A program made the position numbers and the translations under genes. From Okeania sp. (GTDB lineage Bacteria > Cyanobacteriota > Cyanobacteriia > Cyanobacteriales > Microcoleaceae): DNA of 32,000 bases. The DNA is taken from positions 30,001 through 62,000 of the forward strand of contig NZ_JAYKGW010000039.1 in assembly GCF_035285525.1 (NCBI RefSeq), given 5' to 3'. A model generated the notes under the pieces. The model ran no database searches, was not told the DNA's origin, and saw only the letters and a list, made by a program, of their open reading frames with translations. Below, piece by piece: positions 5,354 to 30,356 of the stretch (within the stretch, counting starts at the first letter, position 1; every line of letters begins with the position of its first letter).

Positions 5354-5556
5354 AATATGTAATTAATTCTATATAGATACTTAGCAATTACTATAGTTAT
5401 AAGATAAAATTGTTGTTCTGACTTTCTACCCCCTACTCCCGACTCCCTACTTTCTAAATATGTAATTAATTCTATATAGATACTTAGCAATTACTATAGT
5501 TATAAGGTAGAATTGTTTTTCCGAATTTCTACTCCCTACTCCCTAAAGCCATTGAA
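5354..5556 (+). repeat. 103-bp tandem duplication x2 in the helicase/DprA-like intergenic region
   Basis: AATATGTAATTAATTCTATATAGATACTTAGCAATTACTATAGTTATAAG occurs identically at 5354 and 5457. Both copies then continue into diverged TACTCCC-type heptamers. Confidence 0.85.
5529..5545 (+). repeat. CTACTCCCTACTCCCTA heptamer pair in the leader of the DprA-like gene
   Basis: Exact string at 5529-5545, 27 nt before ATG 5573. The same motif lies before ATG 7477 and ATG 11946. Confidence 0.8.
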
Positions 5557-5572
5557 AATTATCAGAAAAAAA

Positions 5573-7342
5573 ATGTCTAATCATGTTTTATCTCCAGATG
5601 CACAAGCAATAATGTTATTATGTGCTAGCTTTGGTGAAAATAGAAATATCTACCCAGAACCTTTAACCTTAAGTGAGTATAATAGACTTGCCAAAATATT
5701 GATAGAAAACCAACTCGGACCAGGAGACTTATTAACTACAAAAGGGTTAAATATTCTGCTAGAAATTGAGGGTAAACAATTCAACGATGAGCGCTTAGTA
5801 GCCTTATTAGAAAGAGGTGGAATTTTAGCTATTACTCTGGAAAAATGGGTGAATCAAGGTTTATGGATAATTACCAGAAGCGACAGAAATTATCCGAGAA
5901 AATTGAAGCGAAATTTGCAATATTTAGCACCAGCAATTATTTATGGTGTAGGAAATATAGAATTATTAGAAAAAGGCGGATTAGCAATTGTCGGTTCTCG
6001 TGATATTAGTGAGGAAGAAAGAGAGTATACAAATACTATAGGAAAACTTTGTGCATCTCAGGGAATTAATGTAATTTCTGGGGGCGCAAAAGGAACAGAT
6101 ATAGAGGCAATGTTAAGTAGTTTAGAAGTTGGTGGTACTGCGGTGGGAGTTTTGGCAGATAGTTTAAATAAAGCGTCTGTTTCTATTAAGTATCGTGAGG
6201 GTATTAGGGATGGTCAATTAGCTTTAATTTCTACTTATGATCCTAATTCTAGATTTACTGTTGGTAATGCAATGGGTCGGAATAAGTATATTTATGGTTT
6301 ATCTGATTATGCTTTAGTTGTAAGTAGTGGTTTTGATCGGGGTGGTACTTGGGCGGGTGCTACAGAGGTTCTACAAAAATATCAGAAAATATCTGTATTT
6401 GTGAAGGTTGAAGGAACAGTTAAAAAGGGAAATTTAGCCCTTTTGGATAGAGGAGCAATACCTTTTCCTATAGAACCTTGGAATGATGATTTAAAGGAAC
6501 TTTTGTTAGGATCAAAAACTGAGTCATTGTCAGAGTTAGAAAGTTCGGTAAATTTATCTAAAGAAACATCAGAATTAAAATCAGAAATTCAGTCAGATTT
6601 CTCAGAAAAGAATTTATCTTCAGAGTTAGAAACTCCGATAAATTTATCTAAAGAAACATCAGAACTAGAATCAGAACCTCAGTTAGATTTGTCAGAATTA
6701 GAAACTCCGATAAATCTATGTAAAGAAACATCAGAATTAGAATTAGAACCTCAGTCAGATTTATCAGAAAATGATTCATTGTCAGAATTAAAAACTCCAG
6801 TAAACATATCTGACAAAAAAACTGAATTAATATTTGCACAAAAACCTAATTTATCCACTTCTGAAATAACTAATCAAAGTATTTATAAAAAAGTCTTGCC
6901 AATCATCCTAGAAAAATTAACACAACCATACAAAGAAAAAGATTTAGTTAAAAGATTAGAAGTGCGAACTGGTCAATTACGCAATTGGTTAAAAATAGCC
7001 ACAGAAGAAAGAAAAATAATCAAAAATAAGAATACAAAAGAATATGAAATTGTTGCTAAAACTCAAAAAAATCAAACTTCAACACAGCAATTAAGTATCT
7101 ATCAAGCAGTATTACCAATCATACTTGATAACTTAGAAAAACCACAAAAAGATAAAAATTTAGCTACAAAGTTAAATGTAAATATTAGTCAATTACAAGA
7201 TTGGTTAAAAATAGCCACAGAAGAAAAAAAAGTAATTTCAGAAAAATCTAATATTTATGTAATCTCCCCAAAAAAAGACATCGAAAAATTACCTGTATTT
7301 GATGCAGTAGAAGATGATGAAGAAGAAGGATTAGATTGGTGA
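5573..7342 (+). CDS. DprA/Smf (SLOG Rossmann) family protein with a long repeat-containing C-terminal extension (PsyrA/RqlI-like)
   Basis: DprA core motifs: YPRKLKRNLQYLAPAIIYGVG, GLAIVGSRDISEEE, INVISGGAKGTDIEA, GTAVGVLADSL, GRNKYIYGLSDYALVV, GGTWAGATE. The track start (TTG 5513) lies inside the upstream repeat, so I prefer the first ATG at 5573 (MSNHVLSPDAQAIMLL). Confidence 0.75.
   Translation: MSNHVLSPDAQAIMLLCASFGENRNIYPEPLTLSEYNRLAKILIENQLGPGDLLTTKGLNILLEIEGKQFNDERLVALLERGGILAITLEKWVNQGLWIITRSDRNYPRKLKRNLQYLAPAIIYGVGNIELLEKGGLAIVGSRDISEEEREYTNTIGKLCASQGINVISGGAKGTDIEAMLSSLEVGGTAVGVLADSLNKASVSIKYREGIRDGQLALISTYDPNSRFTVGNAMGRNKYIYGLSDYALVVSSGFDRGGTWAGATEVLQKYQKISVFVKVEGTVKKGNLALLDRGAIPFPIEPWNDDLKELLLGSKTESLSELESSVNLSKETSELKSEIQSDFSEKNLSSELETPINLSKETSELESEPQLDLSELETPINLCKETSELELEPQSDLSENDSLSELKTPVNISDKKTELIFAQKPNLSTSEITNQSIYKKVLPIILEKLTQPYKEKDLVKRLEVRTGQLRNWLKIATEERKIIKNKNTKEYEIVAKTQKNQTSTQQLSIYQAVLPIILDNLEKPQKDKNLATKLNVNISQLQDWLKIATEEKKVISEKSNIYVISPKKDIEKLPVFDAVEDDEEEGLDW
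6530..6830 (+). repeat. Intragenic imperfect tandem repeat (72-90 bp units, about 3.5 copies) encoding a Ser/Glu/Leu-rich linker
   Basis: TCAGA(G/A)TTAGAAA(G/C)T occurs at 6530, 6620 and 6692, and the variant TCAGAATTAAAAACT at 6782. The peptide units read SELE(T/S)P(I/V)NLSKETSELESEPQxDLSE. Confidence 0.8.
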
Positions 7343-10037: not shown

Positions 10038-10358
10038 TTAATTATTTCTCTCATTCTCGATTCGATCAATTTTAGCTATTAATAAACTCCAGTTAGTAGC
10101 AATAATTCTTTGATTAGTAACATGATCGTAAGCTTCCCATTCTTGAGAAAGTTCTGTATCTTGCCAAATAAACCAGTTGCGATAAATTTCTCCACTGTCA
10201 ATATCACCACATAGAGATAACCAATCATCTCCTGTAAAATATTCTATTTCTTGCATCACTAAATTAAGTTCAGCTATACTTAAAAATGTTTCTAAGTCAT
10301 TATTATTTATCTGAGAATTTTGAGGGATTTTGCTTTCGTTTATTAATGTGTATTTCAT
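10038..10358 (-). CDS. hypothetical acidic, Trp-rich 106-aa protein
   Basis: ATG-initiated ORF co-directional with the upstream DUF3747 gene. I recognise no family. Confidence 0.45.
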   Translation of the reverse strand: MKYTLINESKIPQNSQINNNDLETFLSIAELNLVMQEIEYFTGDDWLSLCGDIDSGEIYRNWFIWQDTELSQEWEAYDHVTNQRIIATNWSLLIAKIDRIENERNN

Positions 10359-11098: not shown

Positions 11099-11330
11099 TT
11101 TTAGTTAGCTCTGATTTTTGATTTTGTACTCTTAAAGCTTAAATAAAATCATAAGTTCCTGTGGAGAATATTAGGAACTTAATTGAAAAGAACTGCAAAA
11201 AATATCGAAAAGTTAGAATTGCCTAGATAGTTAGGTTTAAAGACTCCAGCAGTCAAAATATTATTAATTAGTTAACTTCCTTAAATTAGAAAAAATTTCT
11301 TATCTTCGTTAATATAGTATAGCTGTAAAA

Positions 11331-11588
11331 AATGATTTGTGAGAAAAAACTTTAGGGGTTTGGTCTTCAAACTCCTTTGCACTTGGCTTGGGTCTGCCAA
11401 CCCCTGCAATAAAATCTTATAGTGTAATAGGGGTAGGTTGGTTGGTTGGTTGGGTTTCACTTCGTTTAACCCAACCCAACCTGACTACACTACTGTAGGG
11501 GTTTGGTCTCCAAACTCCTTTGCACTTAGGGAAAGGAAACCCAACCTGACTACACTACTGTTGGGTTTCGTTCCTCAACCCAACCTAC
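11331..11588. repeat. Nested cluster of dispersed repeats (GTAGGGGTTTGG family x2, ACCCAACCTGACTACACTACTGT x2, GTTGGGTTTCGTTCCTCAACCCAACCTAC)
   Basis: AATGATTTGTGAGAAAAAACTTTAGGGGTTTGGTC lies at 11331. GTAGGGGTTTGGTCTCCAAACTCCTTTGCACTT lies at 11495-11527. The 29-nt hairpin repeat lies at 11560-11588. Track ORF 11438-11650 is an artefact of these repeats. Confidence 0.8.
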
Positions 11589-11833
11589 GTCTCACGAGGG
11601 AGCAAGATACTTCCACTGCTATATCCTGTGAGATCAAATTCGGCGGTTAACTCCTACAAATGTTGTATGGTTTAATCTTTTGCCTAAGTTCTGTTAAAAT
11701 AAAAACTACAACAATCGTAAATAGGTTGTAATATTTTACCATAGGAATTTGGAAGCTAAATCCCTTATGGGTTTTGGTTTGGAGACCAAACCAAAACAGC
11801 TTTTTCTGTTGTAAAAGTTAAAGTAGAGAATTT

Positions 11834-11938
11834 CTACTCCCTACTCCCTCTCTTGGTCGATTCGATATGGCGAGGAAACCCGCTCTTGCAGAGCCGCTCC
11901 GAAGTACGCCATTCCTCGACCGCTACTCCCTACTCCCT
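11834..11938 (+). repeat. Two copies of CTACTCCCTACTCCCT flanking a 73-bp GC-rich structured insert, in the leader of the TIR gene
   Basis: The 16-mer occurs at 11834-11849 and 11923-11938. The insert at 11850-11922 has paired arms GGTCGA/TCGACC and ATGGCG/CGCCAT and an inner hairpin GCTCTTGCAGAGC. Confidence 0.75.
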
Positions 11939-11945
11939 ATTAAAA

Positions 11946-13829
11946 ATGGAAAAAAAATCAAAACGCGATCGCGGACGAATTCTGACAACTTCTGGACTAA
12001 AAAAGTTAAATGAAGCTATTGATGAATGGAAACAGCAATATAACCTCAGAGGTACTCTAGTAGAAATTGAAGCAGAGTCTGGGGTGGGTTCGGACACTAT
12101 CAGTAAAATTCGACAGGGTAGAGTCGGTGCAGACTTAAGCAAAATTCAACAACTTTTTGCTGCTTTTAGTCTCACATTGGATGAAACCGATCACCGTTCT
12201 GGAAAACAAGGTTCATCTTCAACAGAGTCGGAAACTCTGGGGGAACTGTTACCAATACTAAATAATGAACAAATAGTCAGTCAAAATAGTTCTCAAGTTT
12301 TCATTAGTTATCGCAGTCAAGACCCAGACCAAGAATTAGCGCGACAGTTTGAAACTGCTCTGACTGCTGCTGGTCATCAGGTGTTTATGGCAGCAGATCA
12401 TATTCGTCTAGGAGAAAATTGGTTTCAGCGAATAAATGAAGAGTTGAAACGATGTGATTATTTACTGTTGTTTTTGCCTCCTCAGTCTGCGCAAAGTGAG
12501 TTGCTGACTTATCAAGTACAACTGGCGAAGGAGTTACAATTTTCTCGACCAGACCGTAAACCTATAATTTTGCCGATACGGGTAGGTTTTTCTCTGAGTA
12601 CACCTCTTAACCATGACTTGCGCGGTTATCTCTATCGTATTCAACAACGGGAGTGGCGATCGCCTGAAGATAGTGTAGTTATTTTGAAGGAAGTTTTGAC
12701 TTTGTTAGCTACTTCACCAGAAAATTTAGCGCCGGAAATAGAGGAGGAAAAAGATGTTCAAAACCCTGAAGAAATTAGTAGCATTGTATCAGGAAGTCGC
12801 CCTCCTTTACCTGCTGCGGAACCAGAAATACCGGGCGGACAAATTGATGTGGCATCGACTTTTTATATGGAACGCCCACCTATTGAGGAACGTTGTTATC
12901 AAACTATATTACAACCGAGTGGTTTAATTAGAATTAAAGCGCCAAGACAGATGGGTAAAACTTCTTTAATGGCAAGAATTTTACATCATGCTGGAGAGGC
13001 AGGATATCGGACTGTACCTTTGAGTTTTCAGTTAGTAGATAAGGAGGTTTTTAGTAATCTTGAACAGTTCTTAAAATGGTTTTGTGCGTATGTGGGAAGA
13101 GAGCTAAGTTTACCAAATCAATTAGATGATTATTGGGATGATATTTTTGGCAGTAAAGTTAATTGTAAGGATTATTTTGAGAAGTATTTATTAGCTCAAA
13201 TAGATACTCCTTTAGTATTAGGTATTGATGAAATTGACCGGGTTTTTCAATATCCTGATATTGCTGAAGATTTTTTAGGATTATTAAGAGCTTGGCATGA
13301 GGAATCCAAGCGACGTGCGATTTGGAAAAAGTTAAGGTTATTGATGGTACATTCGACAGAAGTTTATATTCCCATGAATATTAATCAATCTCCTTTTAAT
13401 GTGGGATTACCGATAGATTTACCAGAATTTAATCAACAGCAAATTCAGGATTTAGCATCGCGACATAATTTGAATTGGTCCGCATCAGAAGTTGAGAAGT
13501 TAATGGCAATTGTTGGGGGGCATCCTTATTTAGTTAGGGTGGCATTATATCATATTTCTAAACAGGATTTAACCTTAGAAGATTTACCAGAAAATGTAAC
13601 TACTGAAACCGGAATTTATAGCGACCATTTACGACGACATTTATGGAATTTAGAAGAACATCCAGAGTTAGTTGAAGCGATGAAAAATGTAATTTCAGAA
13701 AGTTCGAGTCGGCAGTTAACCGGGATGTTAGGTTTTAAATTAGATAGTTTAGGTTTAGTCAAATGGGATAATAATAAATGTTATCCGAGATGTGAATTAT
13801 ATCGTCAATATTTTCAAGCTCATTTGTAG
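11946..13829 (+). CDS. HTH - TIR - AAA_35 (STAND-like P-loop NTPase) protein
   Basis: First ATG at 11946 (MEKKSKRDRGRIL). The N-terminus has an XRE-like HTH (GTLVEIEAESGVGSDTISKIRQGRVG). The TIR domain reads SQVFISYRSQDPDQELARQFETALTAAGHQVFMAADHIRLGENWFQRINEELKRCDYLLLFLPPQSAQSELL. The AAA_35-type NTPase reads FYMERPPIEERCYQTILQPSGLIRIKAPRQMGKTSL (Walker A) and TPLVLGIDEIDRV (Walker B). Confidence 0.8.
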   Translation: MEKKSKRDRGRILTTSGLKKLNEAIDEWKQQYNLRGTLVEIEAESGVGSDTISKIRQGRVGADLSKIQQLFAAFSLTLDETDHRSGKQGSSSTESETLGELLPILNNEQIVSQNSSQVFISYRSQDPDQELARQFETALTAAGHQVFMAADHIRLGENWFQRINEELKRCDYLLLFLPPQSAQSELLTYQVQLAKELQFSRPDRKPIILPIRVGFSLSTPLNHDLRGYLYRIQQREWRSPEDSVVILKEVLTLLATSPENLAPEIEEEKDVQNPEEISSIVSGSRPPLPAAEPEIPGGQIDVASTFYMERPPIEERCYQTILQPSGLIRIKAPRQMGKTSLMARILHHAGEAGYRTVPLSFQLVDKEVFSNLEQFLKWFCAYVGRELSLPNQLDDYWDDIFGSKVNCKDYFEKYLLAQIDTPLVLGIDEIDRVFQYPDIAEDFLGLLRAWHEESKRRAIWKKLRLLMVHSTEVYIPMNINQSPFNVGLPIDLPEFNQQQIQDLASRHNLNWSASEVEKLMAIVGGHPYLVRVALYHISKQDLTLEDLPENVTTETGIYSDHLRRHLWNLEEHPELVEAMKNVISESSSRQLTGMLGFKLDSLGLVKWDNNKCYPRCELYRQYFQAHL

Positions 13830-13832
13830 TTG

Positions 13833-14051
13833 CTAGGGGCGGGTTTTTTCCAGAATCTTGATACATAACATTAATTTACCTAAACCCAGTTATCAGTTCG
13901 TAGGGGCGGGTTTCACCAAGAATCTTGTTATAACTGATTGACTTTTCTAAACCCGCCCCGTCCAGTGGGTCTGGGGGCGGGTTTATTTAATTTAATATTC
14001 ATATCTATAAATATGTCTTGTGATTTTTCGGGAACTGTAACCCGCCCCTAC
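13833..14051. repeat. Three consecutive GGGGCGGGTTT / AAACCCGCCCC hairpin repeats
   Basis: CTAGGGGCGGGTTTTTT starts at 13833. GTAGGGGCGGGTTT at 13900 pairs with AAACCCGCCCCG at 13949. GGGGGCGGGTTT at 13974 pairs with AACCCGCCCCTAC at 14039. A related pair lies near 30243-30312. Confidence 0.8.
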
Positions 14052-14274: not shown

Positions 14275-15158
14275 ATGTTAAAATCTGAAGGGGATAATTT
14301 TGGAACTGATAAATTTAAAATGCACTTTTTTCCCTCGGCAAGTTCCGGCTTGAAATACAAAGTTTTAAGTTTACCTCCTAACTTTCCTCTAGACAATAAT
14401 AATTCTGAACAGGGAGTTTGTACAATGGCTTATGCTATTCGGGGAGCATTTACGGATTCTCAACATTCTTGATCTTTAGGAATCTTACCTTTTGCTGACC
14501 CGAATCAACCAAGAACGGCAAATATTATTAGACGACCAGAACATGAAATTTGGAAATTACAAGATAGTGAAAAATTGTCTGAATTTTTTGAGAAAGCTTT
14601 TCTACAAATACCAATAAACGAAATAGTTTCATCAGAAGAGAAAGAGCGTTTTGCTAAAAGTGAAGGTGGATATTTTCCTATTCCTCAATATTGTTCAGGG
14701 TTACATTTTTTATTATCAAATACAGATAATTCTGCTGGAATAGTTTTATTAGGAGATGCGGTACATTGTTTTCCTCCCGACCTTGGGCAAGGTGTAAATT
14801 CTGCTTTGGAAGATGTGTTTATATTCGAGCGATCGCTTACTGAAACTAATTATATTATCTCTGAAAGTTTGCCATTATTTGAGTCTTTGCGTTCTCCAGA
14901 GATCAAGCCATACGTTTGAGTCAAGCTGCTTTTCCTTGGCAATATAATCAAGATATTCTGGGTAAACGACTGTGGAGTATTAACTTTTTTGTTGGGTTAT
15001 TGTTGAATAAAATATTGCCTTTTATTTTTGCTCCTCCTGCTTTGATAATGATTCAAAACCATAAACTTAGTTATGGTGAAATATGGTCTATGGCTGAAAG
15101 AACAACTATCTATATATATGTCTTGGGAATAGTTTTAATTTTCGGAAGTTTAGCTTGA
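14275..15158 (+). pseudogene. FAD-dependent monooxygenase (kynurenine-3-monooxygenase-like) remnant: 5' truncation, in-frame TGA, frameshift
   Basis: GIVLLGDAVHCFPPDLGQGVNSALEDV is the C-terminal FAD-binding motif of this family. ORFs 14275-14472 and 14575-14919 share one frame and are separated by a TGA at 14470-14472. The reading frame then shifts by one between 14883 and 14916 into ORF 14916-15158. There is no room upstream for the N-terminal GxGxxG Rossmann part. Confidence 0.7.
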
Positions 15159-17119: not shown

Positions 17120-17686
17120 CTAAAAATCCAACTCTACAAATAAGTCTGCAACTGCTAAGGTAAAACCTGGTAAAATATCTTCTCCATCTAAATTATCAGT
17201 AATTTTTAATAATTTATCTGGCTCTGGTTTATGATCAACTAAAATTGATTTTTCATCAGGATTAATTACCCAAACTAACCGACAGCCATTTTCAAAATAT
17301 TCAACAATTTTCTGATGAAGTTCCTCAAACATATTATTAGGAGAAATTATCTCCACTGCCAAATCAGGAGCGCCTTGAAAATAACCTTTTGGTAATCGCT
17401 TTAATCCTAACAAACAGTCTTTAGAAACAAAAGAAATATCTGGAGAACGTTTATTTCCCGATTTTAAATTAAAAGCTGTGCTGGAGTCGCAAGTTACACC
17501 TAATTTTTGAGGACGAACATACAACTTTCTTAAGCCATATAAATAAACAGCAATATTGCTATGTTCCATTCCCGAAGTTCCCATATCAACTAATTCTCCA
17601 TTAACTAATTCATAATGATTATCATCTTTAGATAATTCTATAAATTCTTCATCTGTTAAATTGTTTTTATCAGTTGCTATAATCAT
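17120..17686 (-). CDS. Uma2 family (DUF820) PD-(D/E)XK-type endonuclease
   Basis: YELVNGELVDMGTSGMEHS ... RSPDISFV ... GAPDLAVEIISPNN ... GCRLVWVINPDEKSILV fits the Uma2 pattern. Confidence 0.8.
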   Translation of the reverse strand: MIIATDKNNLTDEEFIELSKDDNHYELVNGELVDMGTSGMEHSNIAVYLYGLRKLYVRPQKLGVTCDSSTAFNLKSGNKRSPDISFVSKDCLLGLKRLPKGYFQGAPDLAVEIISPNNMFEELHQKIVEYFENGCRLVWVINPDEKSILVDHKPEPDKLLKITDNLDGEDILPGFTLAVADLFVELDF

Positions 17687-19840: not shown

Positions 19841-19930
19841 ATGATTTGTGAGAAAAAACTGTAGGGGTTTGGTCTCCAAACCAAAGCACCCAGGGATTTG
19901 GAAATCAAACCCCTACGATAAAATCTTGCA
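19841..19930 (+). repeat. GTAGGGGTTTGG-family dispersed element (about 90 bp, hairpin core GTAGGGGTTT...AAACCCCTAC)
   Basis: ATGATTTGTGAGAAAAAACTGTAGGGGTTTGGTCTCCAAACC...AAACCCCTACGATAAAATCTT. Related copies lie at 11331-11420, 11495-11527, 21095-21152 and 31905-31975 (reverse), with a fragment at 11775-11791. Confidence 0.8.
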
Positions 19931-20001: not shown

Positions 20002-21063
20002 TTACGAATGATAAATATTTTCCACAAAATGTTCGGAATTAATTTCTATTACTAAATCTACTAATTCTTGATTTTTTATCAGTGGTTTAATAAATAATTC
20101 TGGATGCAATGCTTGCCAAAAATAATCGACAAACTTTTCAATTTCATCATCACTCATTCCCGATTTTCCTGAAGCAATCATTTCTTTTTCTGCTTGTTTC
20201 CGCCATTGTTTAGAAAAACGATAATCTGTCGGATATAAAACTATTAAACTATCTAACTTTTCCCACAAAGGTAAATATTCTATTAATTTTTTATTCATAT
20301 CACGGGCAAACTTTTGGTCTGCTTTTGTGATAATTGGTGATAGTGAAATATCGAAATTTTGCTCTGAAATTGGTCGAACTCCAACAAACCAACCTTCAAA
20401 TAAAACAATATCAACTTTATCTACAATTTCTGGTTCAATTCTATCTCCAGCACCATGAAAAAGAGATTTATTAAATCTAGGAATAGCAATTAAATTATCA
20501 GAACTTTTATTTTCAGATTGACGTAATTTATCTAAAGTTTCTATGCCTAAATTAACATCATGGGTTCCTGGAGGTCCGCGCCAAATTAATCGGGAATCTT
20601 GCTTTTGTAAAAGTTGACGTTCGGCGTAAGTTTTATAAATATCGTCAATAGAAATGCTAATAGTTTTATAGCCGAGTTTGTCTAAAATTAAGACTAAAAT
20701 TTTTGCTAAAGTAGTTTTACCAGTTCCTTGTGCGCCTAAAATTCCTTGAATTAATGGATGACTTAAATTTTGACATTTATTAGCCAATTTTATTGCTAAA
20801 GGTAACCATAATTTCCATAAAATTTCTAGGGTATAATTATCTTCAAGTGGGAATTTATCATAGTCTGTAATTACTGACTGAAATAGAAGCGATCGCTCTC
20901 TAATTTTTTCTCTCACATTGGCTGAATTAATGTTAAAAGCATTAGCACGTTTTTGGTCTATTAATTCCTCGTTTACTAAGGTTTCTAATTCTTTTTTTTC
21001 TAGAGATTTACCTTCCTGTAAAGGTTGTAAAATTTCCTTGATAGATAAGTTGGAAAATTCCAT
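20002..21063 (-). CDS. P-loop kinase, D-glycerate 3-kinase (GLYK)-like
   Basis: Walker A is GILGAQGTGKTTLAKIL. IWRGPPGTHDVNLG and FEGWFVG follow the plant/cyanobacterial glycerate-3-kinase pattern as I remember it. Confidence 0.55.
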   Translation of the reverse strand: MEFSNLSIKEILQPLQEGKSLEKKELETLVNEELIDQKRANAFNINSANVREKIRERSLLFQSVITDYDKFPLEDNYTLEILWKLWLPLAIKLANKCQNLSHPLIQGILGAQGTGKTTLAKILVLILDKLGYKTISISIDDIYKTYAERQLLQKQDSRLIWRGPPGTHDVNLGIETLDKLRQSENKSSDNLIAIPRFNKSLFHGAGDRIEPEIVDKVDIVLFEGWFVGVRPISEQNFDISLSPIITKADQKFARDMNKKLIEYLPLWEKLDSLIVLYPTDYRFSKQWRKQAEKEMIASGKSGMSDDEIEKFVDYFWQALHPELFIKPLIKNQELVDLVIEINSEHFVENIYHS

Positions 21064-25879: not shown

Positions 25880-26485
25880 TTAATTGTCTTTAGTCATCCA
25901 CACAATATCGCCCAAAATTCGATCTACTGGTGGCAATAAATAAACATTAAGGTCTATAGTTAAAACTGATTCAACTAACTGCATAAACTGCCATTGAATC
26001 CCATTACTTACACTACCATAAATTGTAGAAATAGGATAATTTTGTATTTCATTAAATCGTTGAGCAGCAATCATTTCTGCCATACATTTACCAGTTCCTG
26101 TTTTGATATCGGTTTTCTTTGCTTCTACCACCACAACTGCTGGCGCTTCAATCTCTAAAACTTGTGTTGAGCGAGTTAGCAAAAAATCACATTTCCCATT
26201 TAAACCTACTCACTTATCAACATTAAATTTTTCTCCAGAAAATAAACTAATTTTACGGTCTAAAAGTCGTCTTACTTCCAAAAGCAATGGGTAAATAATA
26301 CCTTCCGAACGAGCTTTTTCACTGCCAGATGTAGCAACAATAGGTAAGCTTTCTTGAAGATAACCAGAGAGAATAGGAGAAGGAGCGATCGCTTCAGTTT
26401 CTGGCAAAAAGCGATTGCCTTCTACTACTGTTATATTAAAAGCTGTTTTAACGCTGTTAATGGTGTTGAACTGACTGTAAGACAT
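25880..26485 (-). pseudogene. PD-(D/E)XK nuclease-like protein (cyanobacterial family) interrupted by an in-frame TGA
   Basis: ORFs 26210-26551 and 25880-26182 share one frame. The minus strand reads ...GEKFNVDK-TGA-VGLNGKCDFLLTRSTQVLEIEAPAVVVVEAKKTD, with the stop at 26210-26212. CDFLL ... VVEAKK fits a D...ExK nuclease core. The likely true start is MSYSQFNT at 26485. Confidence 0.65.
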
Positions 26486-26647
26486 AGAATAATTTCCAGA
26501 TAACTGACTTATAGTAAGGCGTCTAGATTTATGAGGGTGGGTAAATTTCATAAATTAAGACCTCTCTCCCTTCCCTGTTCCCCCCTTTCAAAGGGGGGTT
26601 AGGGGGGATAAAAATTCAGGTTTTTTACCCACAAAATTCATTTAATT

Positions 26648-27067
26648 TTACACTGAATTATTGAACTGTTGAATCAACAAATCAGGAGTCATAATTTGGG
26701 GATTAACAACTGGAAAATTCTGAGTATTTCTAGTAACAATAACATCTAATTGATTAATCAAAGCGGTACTGTATTTAATAGCATCTTCAAAATTGGGAAA
26801 ATTTGTATTTAGAGCCAAATCTATTACCACATCATTAACTGTTGCCATTTGGCAAAATGTGCCGATTCGTCTGAAAAAATCAACAGTTAAATTTCGTCCT
26901 TTTTCTTTGCTAATAATATCATAAAGTTCGCTAACACTTGAAGCCGAAATATAGCCTTCAATTTGTTTTTGGTAAACAAATGATATAACTTGAATACTTT
27001 CCAAATAAAATGGCTGTCGCTCTAGGGCAACATCTAGAATTATATTGGTGTCTATAAGAATTTTCAC
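26648..27067 (-). CDS. vapC: PIN-domain (VapC-type) toxin
   Basis: GTG start. KILIDTNIILD (first acidic residue), SVSELYDI, NFEDAIKY and DVIVTRNTQNF fit the PIN acidic-residue pattern. Confidence 0.8.
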   Translation of the reverse strand: MKILIDTNIILDVALERQPFYLESIQVISFVYQKQIEGYISASSVSELYDIISKEKGRNLTVDFFRRIGTFCQMATVNDVVIDLALNTNFPNFEDAIKYSTALINQLDVIVTRNTQNFPVVNPQIMTPDLLIQQFNNSV

Positions 27068-27240: not shown

Positions 27241-27396
27241 ACACTATTATTCAGAACTAAAACCATAGGAACCCTGGGAACCCAGAAACCCGGTTTCTAC
27301 AAGAAATTCGGTTTCTTTGTGGGTTTCTTTGCGTAAATTCTATTATTGTTATAATGAGAAAAAATTCCTAAAAATATATCTCTAAATGAGGTGATT

Positions 27397-27957
27397 ATGT
27401 CTGTAGAATTAGAACGGCGACAATTTACTGTCAAAGAATATCATACAATGGCTGAATCAGGTATTCTCACAGAAAATGACAGAGTAGAATTAATATCAGG
27501 AGAAATTGTTAAAATGTCACCTATTGGTTTGCGTCATGCTGCTTGTGTTAATCGCATTACAAAATTATTTTTTCGACATTTTCTTGAGAGGGCAATTATT
27601 CACGTTCAAAATCCAATACGGTTAAATAATCAGAATGAATTACAACCAGATTTATCTTTATTACAAGAGCGTGATGATTTTTATGAAGGTAAATATCCCC
27701 AACCAGAGGATGTATTCTTATTAATAGAAGTGGCAGATTCATCTATTAAGTATGACCGAGAAACTAAGATGCCTTTGTATGCTAAAAATGGAATTTCTGA
27801 GGTGTGGTTGATAGATATTAATCAACAATTAGTAGAGGTTTATCGACAACCTCAAGGGAATAGTTATCAGAATGTGCAGCAGTTTTTTCAGGGGGATATT
27901 TTAACTATTGAAGCTTTTAATGATATTAATTTAGCTGTTGATAAAATTTTAGGATAA
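27397..27957 (+). CDS. Uma2 family endonuclease, tandem copy 1
   Basis: MSVELERRQFTVKEYHTMAESGILTENDRVELISGEIVKMSPIG ... QPDLSLL ... LLIEVADSSIKYDRETKMPLYAKNGISEVWLIDI fits the Uma2 pattern. I prefer ATG 27397 over the track's GTG 27391. Confidence 0.85.
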   Translation: MSVELERRQFTVKEYHTMAESGILTENDRVELISGEIVKMSPIGLRHAACVNRITKLFFRHFLERAIIHVQNPIRLNNQNELQPDLSLLQERDDFYEGKYPQPEDVFLLIEVADSSIKYDRETKMPLYAKNGISEVWLIDINQQLVEVYRQPQGNSYQNVQQFFQGDILTIEAFNDINLAVDKILG

Positions 27958-28010: not shown

Positions 28011-28571
28011 ATGTCTGTAGAATTAGAACGGCGACAATTTACTGTCAAAGAATATCATCAAATGGCTGAATCAGGTATTCTCACAGAAAATGACAGAGTA
28101 GAATTAATAGCAGGAGAAATTATTAAAGTGGCACCTATTGGTATTCCTCATGCTGGTTTTGTTAGGCGTTTAAATATGATTTTTAACAATCTATTGCGCG
28201 GGAAAGTAATAGTTGATATTCAGAACCCAATCAACTTAAATGATGATAGTGAACCTGAACCAGATTTAGCTTTGTTACAATGGCGTGATGATTGTTATGT
28301 TGGAACACTTCCAGAACCAGAAGATATATTGTTATTAATAGAAGTGGCAGATTCATCTATTAAGTATGACCGAGAAACTAAGATACCTTTGTATGCTAAA
28401 AATGGAATTTCTGAGGTGTGGTTGATAGATATTAATCAACAATTAGTGGAGGTTTATCGACAACCTCAAGGGAATAGTTATCAGAATGTGCAACAGTTTT
28501 TTCGGGGGGATATTTTAACAATTGAAGCTTTTAATGATATTAATTTAGCTGTTGATAAAATTTTAGGATAA
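28011..28571 (+). CDS. Uma2 family endonuclease, tandem copy 2
   Basis: Same architecture as copy 1. The 5' ~100 nt and 3' ~250 nt are nearly identical to copy 1, and the centre is divergent. Confidence 0.85.
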   Translation: MSVELERRQFTVKEYHQMAESGILTENDRVELIAGEIIKVAPIGIPHAGFVRRLNMIFNNLLRGKVIVDIQNPINLNDDSEPEPDLALLQWRDDCYVGTLPEPEDILLLIEVADSSIKYDRETKIPLYAKNGISEVWLIDINQQLVEVYRQPQGNSYQNVQQFFRGDILTIEAFNDINLAVDKILG

Positions 28572-30176: not shown

Positions 30177-30356
30177 GTTGAATAGTGTCCTCTACATGGT
30201 TGATGACTAATCTATTTTTGGCCATATTTTTTTAGCGATCGTTTTTTGCATGAGGGCGGGTTTGTTTCATTTTAGTTCGAGTATTGAATTTTTGGCTACA
30301 AACCCGTCCTATTGGAGTGTTTTATTTGAAACAGTGTATTAGGGAGTAAGGTTGTT

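Follow-up and report, generated by a model that had tools for sequence, protein, structure and literature searches.

The stretch of DNA that we analyzed (hereafter the window) is 32 kb long and, although a sequence-only reading had looked to Nostocales for homologues, comes from Okeania sp. (Oscillatoriales/Microcoleaceae). It carries a complete gene that joins an N-terminal helix-turn-helix (HTH), a TIR domain and an AAA_35 NTPase module, set in repeat-rich flanks between a small divergent ORF and the remnant of another gene. The features discussed below are the following.

10038..10358, minus strand: 106-aa ORF, divergent upstream neighbor, lineage-specific and syntenic across Microcoleaceae
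11099..11945, no strand: upstream intergenic region with interspersed repeats of families D1, D3, I1 and I2, generic and not gene-specific
11946..13829, plus strand: HTH-TIR(Q190)-AAA_35 coding sequence, complete, 627 aa plus stop (ORF list, domains, database look-up)
11946..12200, plus strand: putative XRE/Cro-like HTH domain, aa 1-85 (sub-threshold Pfam matches, recurrence in homologues, AF2)
12294..12710, plus strand: TIR domain, aa 117-255 (Pfam TIR_2, Foldseek)
12498..12500, plus strand: Glu185 codon, an acidic residue that immediately follows a conserved Ser where helix alpha-C begins
12513..12515, plus strand: Gln190 codon, position of the TIR catalytic glutamate (translation, orthologue and profile-to-PDB alignments)
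12825..13826, plus strand: AAA_35 module, aa 294-627, with AAA+ P-loop base, helical lid and C-terminal winged helix
12954..12962, plus strand: Walker A residues G337-K338-T339, invariant or nearly so across the family
13227..13232, plus strand: Walker B residues D428-E429, of which D428 is nearly invariant across the family
13830..14051, no strand: downstream hairpin-type repeats GGGGCGGGTTT, 5 copies, generic interspersed repeats
14575-15158: FAD-monooxygenase remnant, truncated and frameshifted, downstream of the gene

The encoded protein is identical to WP_324235377.1, which an exact database look-up returned under the name 'AAA-like domain-containing protein [Okeania sp.]'. We consider the start of the coding sequence to be fixed, since the ATG or GTG at 11946 coincides exactly with the onset of sequence conservation in 11 orthologous loci. 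Together with the ORF list and Pfam, this conserved start bears out the earlier description of a 627-aa ORF that joins three modules. The protein also ends, as had been claimed, without a C-terminal TPR, WD40 or LRR array; its last element is the winged helix of the AAA_35 module, and the polypeptide contains no C-terminal sensor of superstructure-forming repeats of the kind found in the STAND class.

Pfam AAA_35 (PF14516) matches aa 296-624 over model positions 2-330 of 331 (508 bits, E=1e-152), and the Walker A (PRQMGKTS) and Walker B (LVLGIDEID) motifs that had been read from the sequence are both intact, their residues invariant among orthologues. Modeled at full length with AF2, the protein gave a mediocre result (pLDDT 65, pTM 0.33); the AAA_35 module re-modeled alone with a deeper alignment reached a pLDDT of 93 and a pTM of 0.91, and shows a base, a lid carrying the GxP-like motif GGHPYL, and a winged helix. 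When this module was compared with known structures by Foldseek, TMq values were 0.62 for 2qen, 0.56 for 2fna and 0.49 for 1w5t, which belong to the archaeal ATPase/ORC-Cdc6 group, and 0.58 for Roq1, 0.57 for CED-4, 0.57 for RPP1 and 0.52 for Avs3. The archaeal ATPases 2qen and 2fna therefore match the module equally well or better than the immune receptors and CED-4 do, and ORC/Cdc6 proteins stand near the top by E-value. PDB sequence searches with the window protein and with the family profile gave matches only at the level of the P-loop or the TIR. On the strength of the models, the AAA_35 module is predicted to be a compact STAND/ORC-like AAA+ switch, and the effector-plus-switch layout proposed earlier, with an N-terminal output domain in front of a STAND/ORC-type P-loop, agrees with both the Pfam and the fold matches. 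The family is large (>2,000 clusters at 50% identity), and its other members carry the effectors of conflict systems, including TIR, CHAT, caspase, trypsin, kinase and cyclase domains and EADs.

The TIR assignment is confirmed as well. Pfam TIR_2 (PF13676) matches aa 118-229 at 63.4 bits (cut-off 28, E=3.7e-17), and Foldseek returned SPARTA, SARM1, RPS4, TRAM and BtTir as TIR-fold matches, with a probability of 1.00 for SARM1, SPARTA, RPS4 and BtTir. The sequence-only reading had further proposed Glu185 as the catalytic glutamate, and here our alignments point elsewhere. The catalytic Glu of AbTir, BtTir and Cat1, found in the contexts WTNYEL, WTEYEL and CWDEL, respectively, falls on the column of Q190 in a profile alignment to TIR structures, an assignment that rests on sequence profiles and predicted secondary structure rather than on residue-level structural superposition. 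Paralogues read S-E-M-V-T-E-E-V, in which the latter of the two adjacent E residues lines up with the catalytic Glu, and the window protein, which aligns to them without gaps, reads S-E-L-L-T-Y-Q-V. Thus the hallmark of NADase or signal-producing TIRs, a Glu early in helix alpha-C within a (W)xxxE motif, is replaced by Gln190. The same column holds E in 47, D in 12 and Q in 6 of 77 paralogue representatives, and Q190 is invariant in 40 aligned orthologues.

From these alignments, the TIR is predicted to have lost its catalytic glutamate in the whole orthogroup. Given this replacement, the window protein most probably does not act as a suicide effector that cleaves NAD+. In ThsB, the E85Q substitution abolished both defense and NAD depletion (10.1101/2021.01.06.425286), and in the view of Kaur et al. 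(2020), related conflict systems contain effector domains without catalytic activity that probably work as binders or dominant-negative regulators (PMC7159879). A 'TIR' in proteins of this type should therefore not be annotated as an 'NADase' until the catalytic column has been checked. The TIR fold is conserved: its identity among orthologues is 70-92%, and Q183-S184-E185, L187 and Y189-Q190-V191 are invariant in the 40 aligned orthologues.

The N-terminal domain had been described as an XRE-like HTH, a description with which position and predicted fold are consistent and which stays below threshold in Pfam. Matches to the window protein are weak (HTH_3 at 14.7 bits, where the cut-off is 23, HTH_31 at 12.5 bits, and further weak matches of the PuuR and HipB type), but HTH_3, HTH_31 and HTH_26 match at one common position in six homologous N-termini, and homologous N-termini of paralogues match HTH_31, HTH_26 or HTH_3 at 14-20 bits. 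The AF2 model has a helical bundle in this region (helices 15-32, 38-45, 49-56 and 64-73, pLDDT about 80-88). The domain is nearly invariant: identity is 93% with close orthologues and 77% with distant ones. The same type of HTH occurs on TIR-less AAA_35 proteins of ~450 aa that consist of HTH plus AAA_35, in one case it lies C-terminal to AAA_35, and in other lineages a sigma-70 region 4 HTH occupies the equivalent position; Floridaenema, for instance, has a Glu-bearing sigma-HTH-TIR-AAA_35 paralogue. Symploca has an HTH-AAA_35 gene and, 26 bp after it, an AAA_35-GAF gene; no output domain other than the HTH can be recognized in that pair. When 315 bp upstream of the gene were aligned across 11 orthologous loci, we found no conserved operator-like or promoter sequence.

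The sequence-only reading had also described the gene as bracketed by repeats and a gene remnant. The repeat-rich flanks and the FAD-monooxygenase remnant are indeed there, but the repeats are generic: the upstream motif GGGGTTTGGTCTYCAAAC recurs at 19864 and 31932, the downstream repeat GGGGCGGGTTT has one further copy at 30253, and the upstream repeat region shows no conservation across orthologues. That the flanking repeats belong to a mobile element or a regulatory unit was considered and rejected: members of the same families are found at other places in the window, and the flanks vary from one orthologous locus to the next, so the repeats are not part of the gene. The divergent 106-aa ORF is present in 29 of 47 loci and has no Pfam family, and its homologues are confined to Microcoleaceae; in Microcoleus the homologue is separated from the gene by about 490-500 bp and has 43% identity. 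As a candidate deep partner, this ORF was likewise rejected: the small ORF upstream of P0131, a distant HTH-TIR(E)-AAA_35 gene, is unrelated to it, and we therefore take the link as synteny only.

If the gene were part of a defense island or the accessory genome, a patchy distribution, a variable context and fast evolution would be expected, and our comparison of orthologous loci contradicts this profile. We collected more than 40 loci from several genera, with identities to the window protein of 92% in Dapis, 88-90% in Okeania, 85-86% in Trichodesmium and 70-73% in Microcoleus, and the ORF is full length in all except a few contig-truncated loci. Upstream neighbors are shared across genera, the surrounding genes are housekeeping genes, and no defense genes were found among the neighbors. 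The gene's dN/dS is 0.10-0.14, compared with 0.08 for FTRc (ferredoxin-thioredoxin reductase) and 0.12 for a DUF58 gene; HTH, TIR and AAA_35 are similarly conserved, while the linkers vary freely. The gene thus resides on the chromosome of Okeania, Dapis, Trichodesmium and Microcoleus, where it is inherited vertically, in conserved synteny, and under strong, housekeeping-level purifying selection on all three domains. The sequence-only reading had proposed a stand-alone TIR immune sensor, NAD+-consuming or signal-making, in a variable island, and among the outcomes that would count against it had named a TIR without the catalytic Glu and conservation of the gene in synteny among relatives. We found both, and the proposal is not supported.

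Looking beyond the orthologues, we found that AAA_35 genes tend to come in pairs. In the two-gene cassette that we define here, A-type proteins have a variable N-terminal domain followed by AAA_35 at the C-terminus, and B-type proteins have a divergent AAA_35 followed by a variable C-terminal domain (WD40, GAF, TPR, histidine kinase, receiver or Macro), with Walker motifs intact. The window protein, with its variable N-terminal part and C-terminal AAA_35 module, fits the A-type. A B-type gene lies directly downstream, on the same strand, of other A-type genes at 10 of 12 genomic loci and at 40 of 63 metagenomic loci, the latter from a scan for A-type loci run with a trimmed alignment; the gap is <200 bp in 32 of the 40 metagenomic pairs. 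TIR-AAA_35 genes that keep the Glu are paired with B genes as well, at 14 of 22 loci. This A-then-B arrangement of AAA_35 genes is a new observation.

Among orthologues of the window gene, a B-type gene is found downstream in 12 of 17 Microcoleus-type orthologues, as opposed to 0 of 20 marine-clade loci (at least 85% identity). The Microcoleus orthologues, which also have Q190, adjoin an AAA_35-WD40 gene. Neither the 32-kb window nor the 20 marine-clade flanks contain a B-type AAA_35 partner, so the earlier statement that the gene has no same-strand partner is correct within the window. Orthologous loci scored about 495-505 bits with our local A-type HMM, and the sole B-type match in any orthologue locus was a separate ORF; the matches listed in the search for B-type homologues are from other lineages and reach down to about 51% identity. 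Given that a sensor-bearing AAA_35 gene lies directly downstream in relatives, the earlier claim that input must enter through the HTH or the NTPase itself is too narrow.

We found no paper that treats the AAA_35 (PF14516) NTPase, and the family is named neither in Kaur et al. (PMC7159879) nor in a STAND survey of 2026, nor in the DGR paper. PADLOC-DB v2 gave only local TIR matches of at most 29 bits and left the NTPase part unmatched. In NCBIfam, ThcB4 scored 27 bits (cut-off 220) and retron-TIR 25 bits (cut-off 600), and no model covers the AAA_35 NTPase. These searches support the earlier statement that no AAA_35-based system is known to have been characterized experimentally.

The explanation we prefer, to which we give about an even chance, is that the window protein comes from a split STAND-like pair, of which it would be the orphaned output (A) half. 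It would have a non-catalytic TIR and work as an ATP-gated DNA-binding regulator or adaptor. The gene would then belong to a cyanobacterial two-NTPase system built on AAA_35, as an A half whose usual B gene is absent from the marine-lineage locus. The intact P-loop would bind ATP and promote assembly of a homo-oligomer, or of a hetero-oligomer with a B-type AAA_35 protein encoded elsewhere; oligomerization would cluster the N-terminal XRE-like HTHs on DNA and so alter transcription. The dead TIR could provide a second self-association surface, or a non-hydrolyzing pocket for an NAD-derived ligand. DNA binding, transcriptional output, oligomerization and a non-catalytic role of the TIR are all properties that we infer for the window protein.

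The other N-terminal domains of paralogues (TIR with Glu, CHAT, caspase, trypsin, EADs) point toward conflict or immunity. Because such conflict-type domains sit on paralogues, an immune role as a non-enzymatic component is possible, and we regard it as an appreciable though clearly minority alternative. The protein would in that case be an adaptor, helper, decoy or dominant-negative regulator in an anti-phage or conflict network of AAA_35 NTPases, its AAA_35 module and dead TIR co-assembling with B-type proteins or with Glu-bearing TIR-AAA_35 paralogues, and its HTH sensing foreign DNA or repressing the network. The classical effectors on paralogues, the B-pairing of Glu-bearing TIR-AAA_35 genes and the AAA_35-WD40 gene that still adjoins the Q190 orthologues of Microcoleus are all consistent with this, as are the proposal of Kaur et al. 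that inactive effector domains act as dominant-negative or binding modules (PMC7159879) and the precedent of nSTAND2, an operon for a two-STAND hetero-multimer (PMC8195603). However, housekeeping-level selection and stable syntenic inheritance are unusual for immune genes (helpers can be conserved), the neighborhood holds no defense genes, PADLOC matches the TIR only, and the marine clade has no partner in cis.

That the protein is instead a stand-alone, single-gene abortive-infection sensor, in which oligomerization of the NTPase switches on an NADase or signal-synthase activity of the TIR, seems improbable to us. Its TIR-plus-NTPase layout is that of plant TNLs, with RPP1 and Roq1 among the fold matches, and both the conserved TIR and the intact P-loop would suit such a function. 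Against this stand the Gln in place of the catalytic Glu in every orthologue, an E-to-Q change of the kind that killed ThsB (10.1101/2021.01.06.425286), the core-like, syntenic position outside any island with a dN/dS of about 0.1, and the absence of both a sensor domain and a partner.

We consider it very improbable that the TIR carries out some other chemistry, such as a nucleic-acid-directed or base-exchange reaction, that tolerates Gln or uses residues such as E185. The entire TIR is as constrained as the ATPase, and its invariance among the 40 orthologues, including the residues around Q190, does imply that its surface is functionally important. The E185 column, however, is E or D also in paralogues that keep the canonical Glu, and E185 is therefore not its replacement; we know of no natural TIR enzyme of the Gln type. 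The idea that the gene is a decaying relic of a former A/B defense pair, turning into a pseudogene after loss of B, could appeal to the missing partner at all 20 clade loci, the repeat-rich surroundings and the truncated gene downstream, but it is scarcely credible and effectively refuted by the selection data, with the ORF intact in nearly all of >40 loci and all motifs preserved.

The preferred reading, that of an orphan A half acting as a regulator or adaptor, can be extended to the family as a whole, although only as a tentative proposal that we think has a modest chance of being right. AAA_35 may represent a very large, undescribed split-STAND system of filamentous cyanobacteria, whose co-transcribed A and B proteins would form NTPase rings of mixed composition. 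In this view the window gene is an A gene that lost both its partner in cis and TIR catalysis and was then fixed as a core regulator in marine Microcoleaceae (Okeania, Dapis, Trichodesmium). Glu-bearing paralogues might produce NAD-derived signals that the dead TIR senses and relays to transcription through the HTH. Should the preferred reading of the window protein hold, an immune-type TIR and a STAND-like switch would have been turned into a conserved non-catalytic regulator in ecologically important, bloom-forming and nitrogen-fixing cyanobacteria, a bacterial parallel to the scaffold-type TIRs of animals and the non-signaling TIRs of paired plant NLRs. More generally, the A-then-B pairs of AAA_35 genes, with their combinatorial output and sensor domains, suggest that there is a large class of two-protein nucleotide switches for which no experimental work is known.

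Several known systems resemble parts of this picture. TIR-STAND receptors (Avs-type STANDs, bNACHT and the TNLs RPP1 and Roq1) likewise have an N-terminal TIR followed by a P-loop NTPase, lid and winged helix, and would share an oligomerization-type switch logic. The window NTPase differs in belonging to a separate family, AAA_35, which is at least as near to 2qen/2fna and ORC/Cdc6, and the window protein has no C-terminal sensor repeats, a Gln for the catalytic Glu and an extra N-terminal HTH; its gene is conserved and syntenic, not island-borne. For the whole AAA_35 module (base, lid, winged helix), the best structural matches are archaeal ATPase_2/ORC-Cdc6 proteins, although sequence similarity is undetectable beyond the P-loop, partners and fused domains differ, and there is no replication link.

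On the regulatory side, Kaur et al. (2020, PMC7159879) point out that the bacterial STANDs studied first were NTP-dependent regulators of transcription. MalT, AfsR/SARP-type regulators and GutR offer an analogy, in that a nucleotide-gated oligomerizing NTPase is coupled to HTH output. In the window protein, however, the HTH is XRE-like and N-terminal rather than LuxR- or SARP-type, and its DNA binding is putative; the sensor would lie outside the polypeptide, a TIR intervenes between HTH and NTPase, and the NTPase family is another one. The NTP-dependent conflict systems of multicellular bacteria (PMC7159879) share with the AAA_35 paralogues the repertoire of TIR, CHAT/caspase, trypsin, kinase, cyclase and EADs and the phyletic bias to filamentous cyanobacteria, and inactive effector domains are read there as binders or regulators. 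Unlike those systems, the window gene is not a vWA-MoxR ternary, iSTAND or GTPase-centered one.

Paired NTPases offer parallels to a split switch. In nSTAND2 (Kaur, Iyer, Burroughs and Aravind 2021, PMC8195603), two adjacent paralogous STAND-type NTPases with variable fused domains are predicted to form a hetero-multimer, and the A-then-B arrangement of AAA_35 follows the same two-NTPase logic. One nSTAND2 partner has an eroded P-loop, with GT4 or HEPN effectors, whereas AAA_35 A and B proteins both keep Walker A and B; effectors and sensors differ, the window protein has no nSTAND Pfam match, and the window holds only A. A further parallel is found in paired plant NLRs. RPS4 and RRS1 combine a sensor and an executor of related NTPases, and RRS1 has a TIR that does not signal alone, plus a DNA-binding WRKY domain that acts as a decoy. 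The RPS4/RRS1 TIR heterodimer (4c6t) is among the Foldseek matches to the window TIR; these are eukaryotic NB-ARC-LRR proteins, and the likeness would be one of analogy only, with no evolutionary relationship implied.

The 627-aa reading frame that the sequence-only reading had described is real, and its product is identical to WP_324235377.1, an "AAA-like domain-containing protein [Okeania sp.]":

11946-13829, + strand: HTH-TIR-AAA_35 ORF, 627 aa

Conservation in 11 orthologous loci starts exactly at the ATG of the window gene (GTG in some), and we therefore dismissed a longer TTG start at 11853. Pfam matches uphold both the TIR assignment (TIR_2, 63.4 bits against a cut-off of 28 bits, aa 118-229) and the AAA_35 assignment (matched over its full length, 508 bits, aa 296-624), and the Walker A (PRQMGKTS) and Walker B (LVLGIDEID) motifs are present. 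The proposed XRE-like helix-turn-helix (HTH) gives only sub-threshold matches in Pfam and NCBIfam; Cro/C1-type HTH families also match the same positions in 6 homologous N-termini, and the region forms a confident helical bundle in the AF2 model. The host is an oscillatorian cyanobacterium (~33% G+C) and not a member of the Nostocales, whose genomes had been proposed for comparison.

TIR-bearing AAA_35 paralogues (n = 77) align without gaps around the catalytic-region motif, with the consensus LLLLSxxSAxSEMVTEEVRRAK and the window counterpart LLFLPPQSAQSELLTYQVQLAKE. We located the catalytic column by searching a family TIR profile against PDB sequences, and found that the second Glu of "TEEV" shares a column with the catalytic Glu in TIRs that are NADases, namely AbTir (WTNYEL), BtTir (WTEYEL) and Cat1 (CWDEL). 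The window protein holds Gln190 in this column (codon 12513-12515), and this residue is unvarying in 40 orthologues spanning 70-93% identity, while the 77 aligned paralogue representatives carry E (47), D (12) or Q (6), among others. The catalytic Glu had earlier been sought in Glu185 ("...SAQSE"), the acidic residue right behind the conserved Ser, which the profile alignment contradicts; given that most paralogues keeping the canonical Glu also carry E or D there, Glu185 is no substitute. Profile alignment and predicted secondary structure thus argue that the window TIR is one without the catalytic Glu, Gln190 standing in its place. In ThsB, the identical E-to-Q change abolished both Thoeris defense and NAD depletion (10.1101/2021.01.06.425286). 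TIR domain identity is 92% to close and 70% to distant orthologues, with similar values for the HTH and ATPase, whereas the two linkers vary freely; by this pattern, the TIR is still under constraint despite Gln190.

No solved structure for the AAA_35 module was detectable by sequence search. We modeled aa 286-627 with AF2 from a 75-sequence alignment, and the result is confident (pLDDT 93, pTM 0.91). The modeled module consists of an alpha/beta base with the P-loop, a lid of helices with GGHPYL and a terminal winged helix. Foldseek searches against the PDB returned archaeal ATPases (2qen, TMq 0.62; 2fna, 0.56), ORC/Cdc6 proteins and STAND NTPases (TMq for Roq1 0.58, CED-4 0.57, RPP1 0.57 and Avs3 0.52), and the plant TIR-NLR RPP1 was the top match of the full-length model. 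These fold matches bear out the earlier view of an NTPase switch and make "NTPase switch of the STAND/ORC kind" a fair label for the modeled fold, one that assigns no clade within STAND. Also as first held, the window polypeptide lacks a sensor domain.

The AAA_35 module is nearly always C-terminal among 149 representatives. N-terminal partners in 78 Pfam-scanned representatives are TIR (38), protein kinase (9), CHAT (9) and nucleotide cyclase (8), as well as caspase, trypsin, sigma-70 region 4 or LuxR HTH, and EAD1/4/8. The window-type HTH is also found on TIR-less AAA_35 proteins of ~450 aa, in a single HTH-AAA_35-AAA_35 chain (P0121), C-terminal to AAA_35 in one case (P0259), and in a locus where HTH-AAA_35 is followed by a bare 469-aa AAA_35 protein of the B-type described below (L048, 2562-5391); these permutations tie the HTH to AAA_35. 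Near-identical cyanobacterial-type TIR-AAA_35 genes occur in "Actinomycetota bacterium" MAGs (P0055, locus L042), a label that is probably a binning error rather than horizontal transfer.

In orthologous Microcoleus loci, a second AAA_35 gene with a WD40 C-terminus lies downstream on the same strand, only ~25% identical to the first. We refer to proteins with a variable N-terminal domain as A-type and to those with an N-terminal NTPase and a variable C-terminus (WD40, TPR, histidine kinase, receiver, PG-binding, Macro or GUN4) as B-type; Walker motifs of the latter are intact. The A-B gap is 155 bp in Microcoleus-type locus L031, and two opposite-strand genes intervene in several Microcoleus loci. 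In Floridaenema and Phormidium, B-type genes likewise follow sigma-HTH-TIR(Glu)-AAA_35 genes, and in Symploca (GAF domains on B, gap 26 bp), Coleofasciculus and Mojavia they follow TIR-less HTH-AAA_35 genes. We scored local A- and B-type HMMs on all collected loci, including 80 metagenomic A-type loci. Of the metagenomic loci, 63 were informative, and 40 of these had a same-strand downstream B gene (32 within 200 bp; 7 more had one nearby in another orientation), as did 10/12 loci of the genomic set and 12/17 Microcoleus-type orthologues. The window's marine clade (Okeania, Dapis, Trichodesmium) had none in 20 loci, and tblastn of the window with a B protein hit the A gene only, in agreement with the absence of a same-strand partner first noticed. 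B genes can also occur alone, with an A gene upstream in 1 of 3 B-centered loci examined. A Macro domain (ADP-ribose-binding or -hydrolysing) gene sits between A and B in some Microcoleus loci (L004, 12150-12659, - strand; L024; L026), and Macro domains are fused C-terminally to B-type AAA_35 in other cyanobacteria (Macro-domain proteins P0348, P0379, P0382, P0416, P0417); such genes and fusions hint at ADP-ribose-related signaling in TIR-containing A/B systems.

The window protein has >4,900 homologues (2,291 clusters at 50% clustering; score E<1e-30). Whole-protein orthologues have identities of 92% in Dapis, 88-90% in Okeania, 85-86% in Trichodesmium including IMS101, and 70-73% in Microcoleus, Kamptonema or Lyngbya. 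Upstream, a 106-aa lineage-specific ORF and DUF3747 are common to the window, Dapis and Okeania, as are, farther out, DUF309, the FTR catalytic subunit (FTRc) and a DUF58 gene. Against five genomes, the window gene has a dN/dS of 0.10-0.14; FTRc comes to 0.08 and the DUF58 gene to 0.12, and the two small neighbors lie at 0.3-0.7. The remaining window genes are ordinary chromosomal ones (RecQ-like helicase, DprA, PBP4, RlmN, aldo-keto reductase, Uma2, PIN toxin), and the repeats on either side of the gene come from interspersed families that recur elsewhere in the window and differ among orthologous loci. Given this distribution, synteny, selection and setting, the gene does not fit a mobile or island-borne defense gene.

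Other features of the window are as follows.

10038-10358, - strand: 106-aa ORF, acidic and Trp-rich (counterparts: L004, 9174-9506; L031, 2592-2936)
11355, 11498, 11777, 19864, 31932; and 13836-14048, 30253: short interspersed repeats
14575-15158, + strand: FAD-dependent monooxygenase remnant (FAD_binding_3 profile positions 286-318)
17120-17686, - strand; 27391-27957 and 28011-28571, + strand: Uma2-family genes, putative restriction-endonuclease-like
26648-27067, - strand: PIN_3 toxin-like gene, adjoined by small same-strand ORFs (26210-26551, 25880-26182)
5513-7342, + strand: DprA (DNA_processg_A) protein, 609 aa, SLOG-like signature and long extra region
20002-21063, - strand: P-loop protein, 353 aa, only weak matches to nSTAND3 (22 bits) and PRK-like

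The 106-aa ORF has no Pfam family and homologues in Microcoleaceae only. From Okeania through to Microcoleus, where it is 43% identical and ~490 bp away, it keeps a divergent position upstream of the HTH-TIR-AAA_35 gene; its dN/dS is 0.3-0.5. A small ORF upstream of a distant homologue (P0131) proved unrelated. The repeats form two families, GGGGTTTGGTCTYCAAAC and GGGGCGGGTTT hairpins, much commoner than chance, which fill the intergenic DNA next to the gene as well as at other places in the window. The monooxygenase remnant is a C-terminal third split by a frameshift into 114- and 80-aa ORFs, and Dapis and T. erythraeum IMS101 carry sequence homologous to it on the downstream side of the orthologue. 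Three Uma2-family genes fall within 32 kb, two in tandem; the PIN_3 gene and its small unannotated neighbors are probably a toxin-antitoxin cassette, and at 609 aa the DprA protein is unusually long for its kind.

The AAA_35 family looks like a STAND-type receptor in two polypeptides, A carrying output and NTPase and B carrying NTPase and sensor, and we infer an A-B interaction. The window gene is a predicted A subunit with an XRE-like HTH, a TIR without the catalytic Glu and no cis partner. Because its HTH, TIR and AAA_35 domains are all under strong purifying selection, and the HTH is the sole recognizable output domain in some A/B pairs, we favor, with confidence and doubt in balance, a DNA-binding regulator or adaptor whose oligomerization would be gated by ATP and whose TIR would serve as an assembly or ligand-binding surface. 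The main rival is that the protein is still an immune component, though a non-enzymatic one, acting on Glu-bearing paralogues or B-type sensors for example as helper, decoy or dominant-negative regulator; this seems rather unlikely to us. The sequence-only reading was largely right in observation and only partly in interpretation; its single-gene NADase sensor, with a genuine TIR in its favor and Gln190 against it, is highly improbable.

The interest of the gene lies less in a "single-gene immune sensor" than in the conservation of a TIR-NTPase-HTH protein that is catalytically disabled, and further in its membership in a widespread two-gene AAA_35 system. We found no publication on AAA_35 in a literature of incomplete coverage, and the A/B pairing may be noted elsewhere. 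The window protein is a variation on an already known kind, the STAND/ORC-like NTPase that carries output domains at its N-terminus. Kaur et al. 2020 came to conclusions similar to our favored reading on effector domains that are inactive in related systems, and they note that it was as transcription regulators that bacterial STANDs first became known. The two-gene nSTAND2 operon, predicted to form a hetero-multimeric ring (Kaur et al. 2021, PMC8195603), offers a conceptual precedent for the A/B split; nSTAND2 is a different family from AAA_35, and the P-loop is eroded in one of the two partners.
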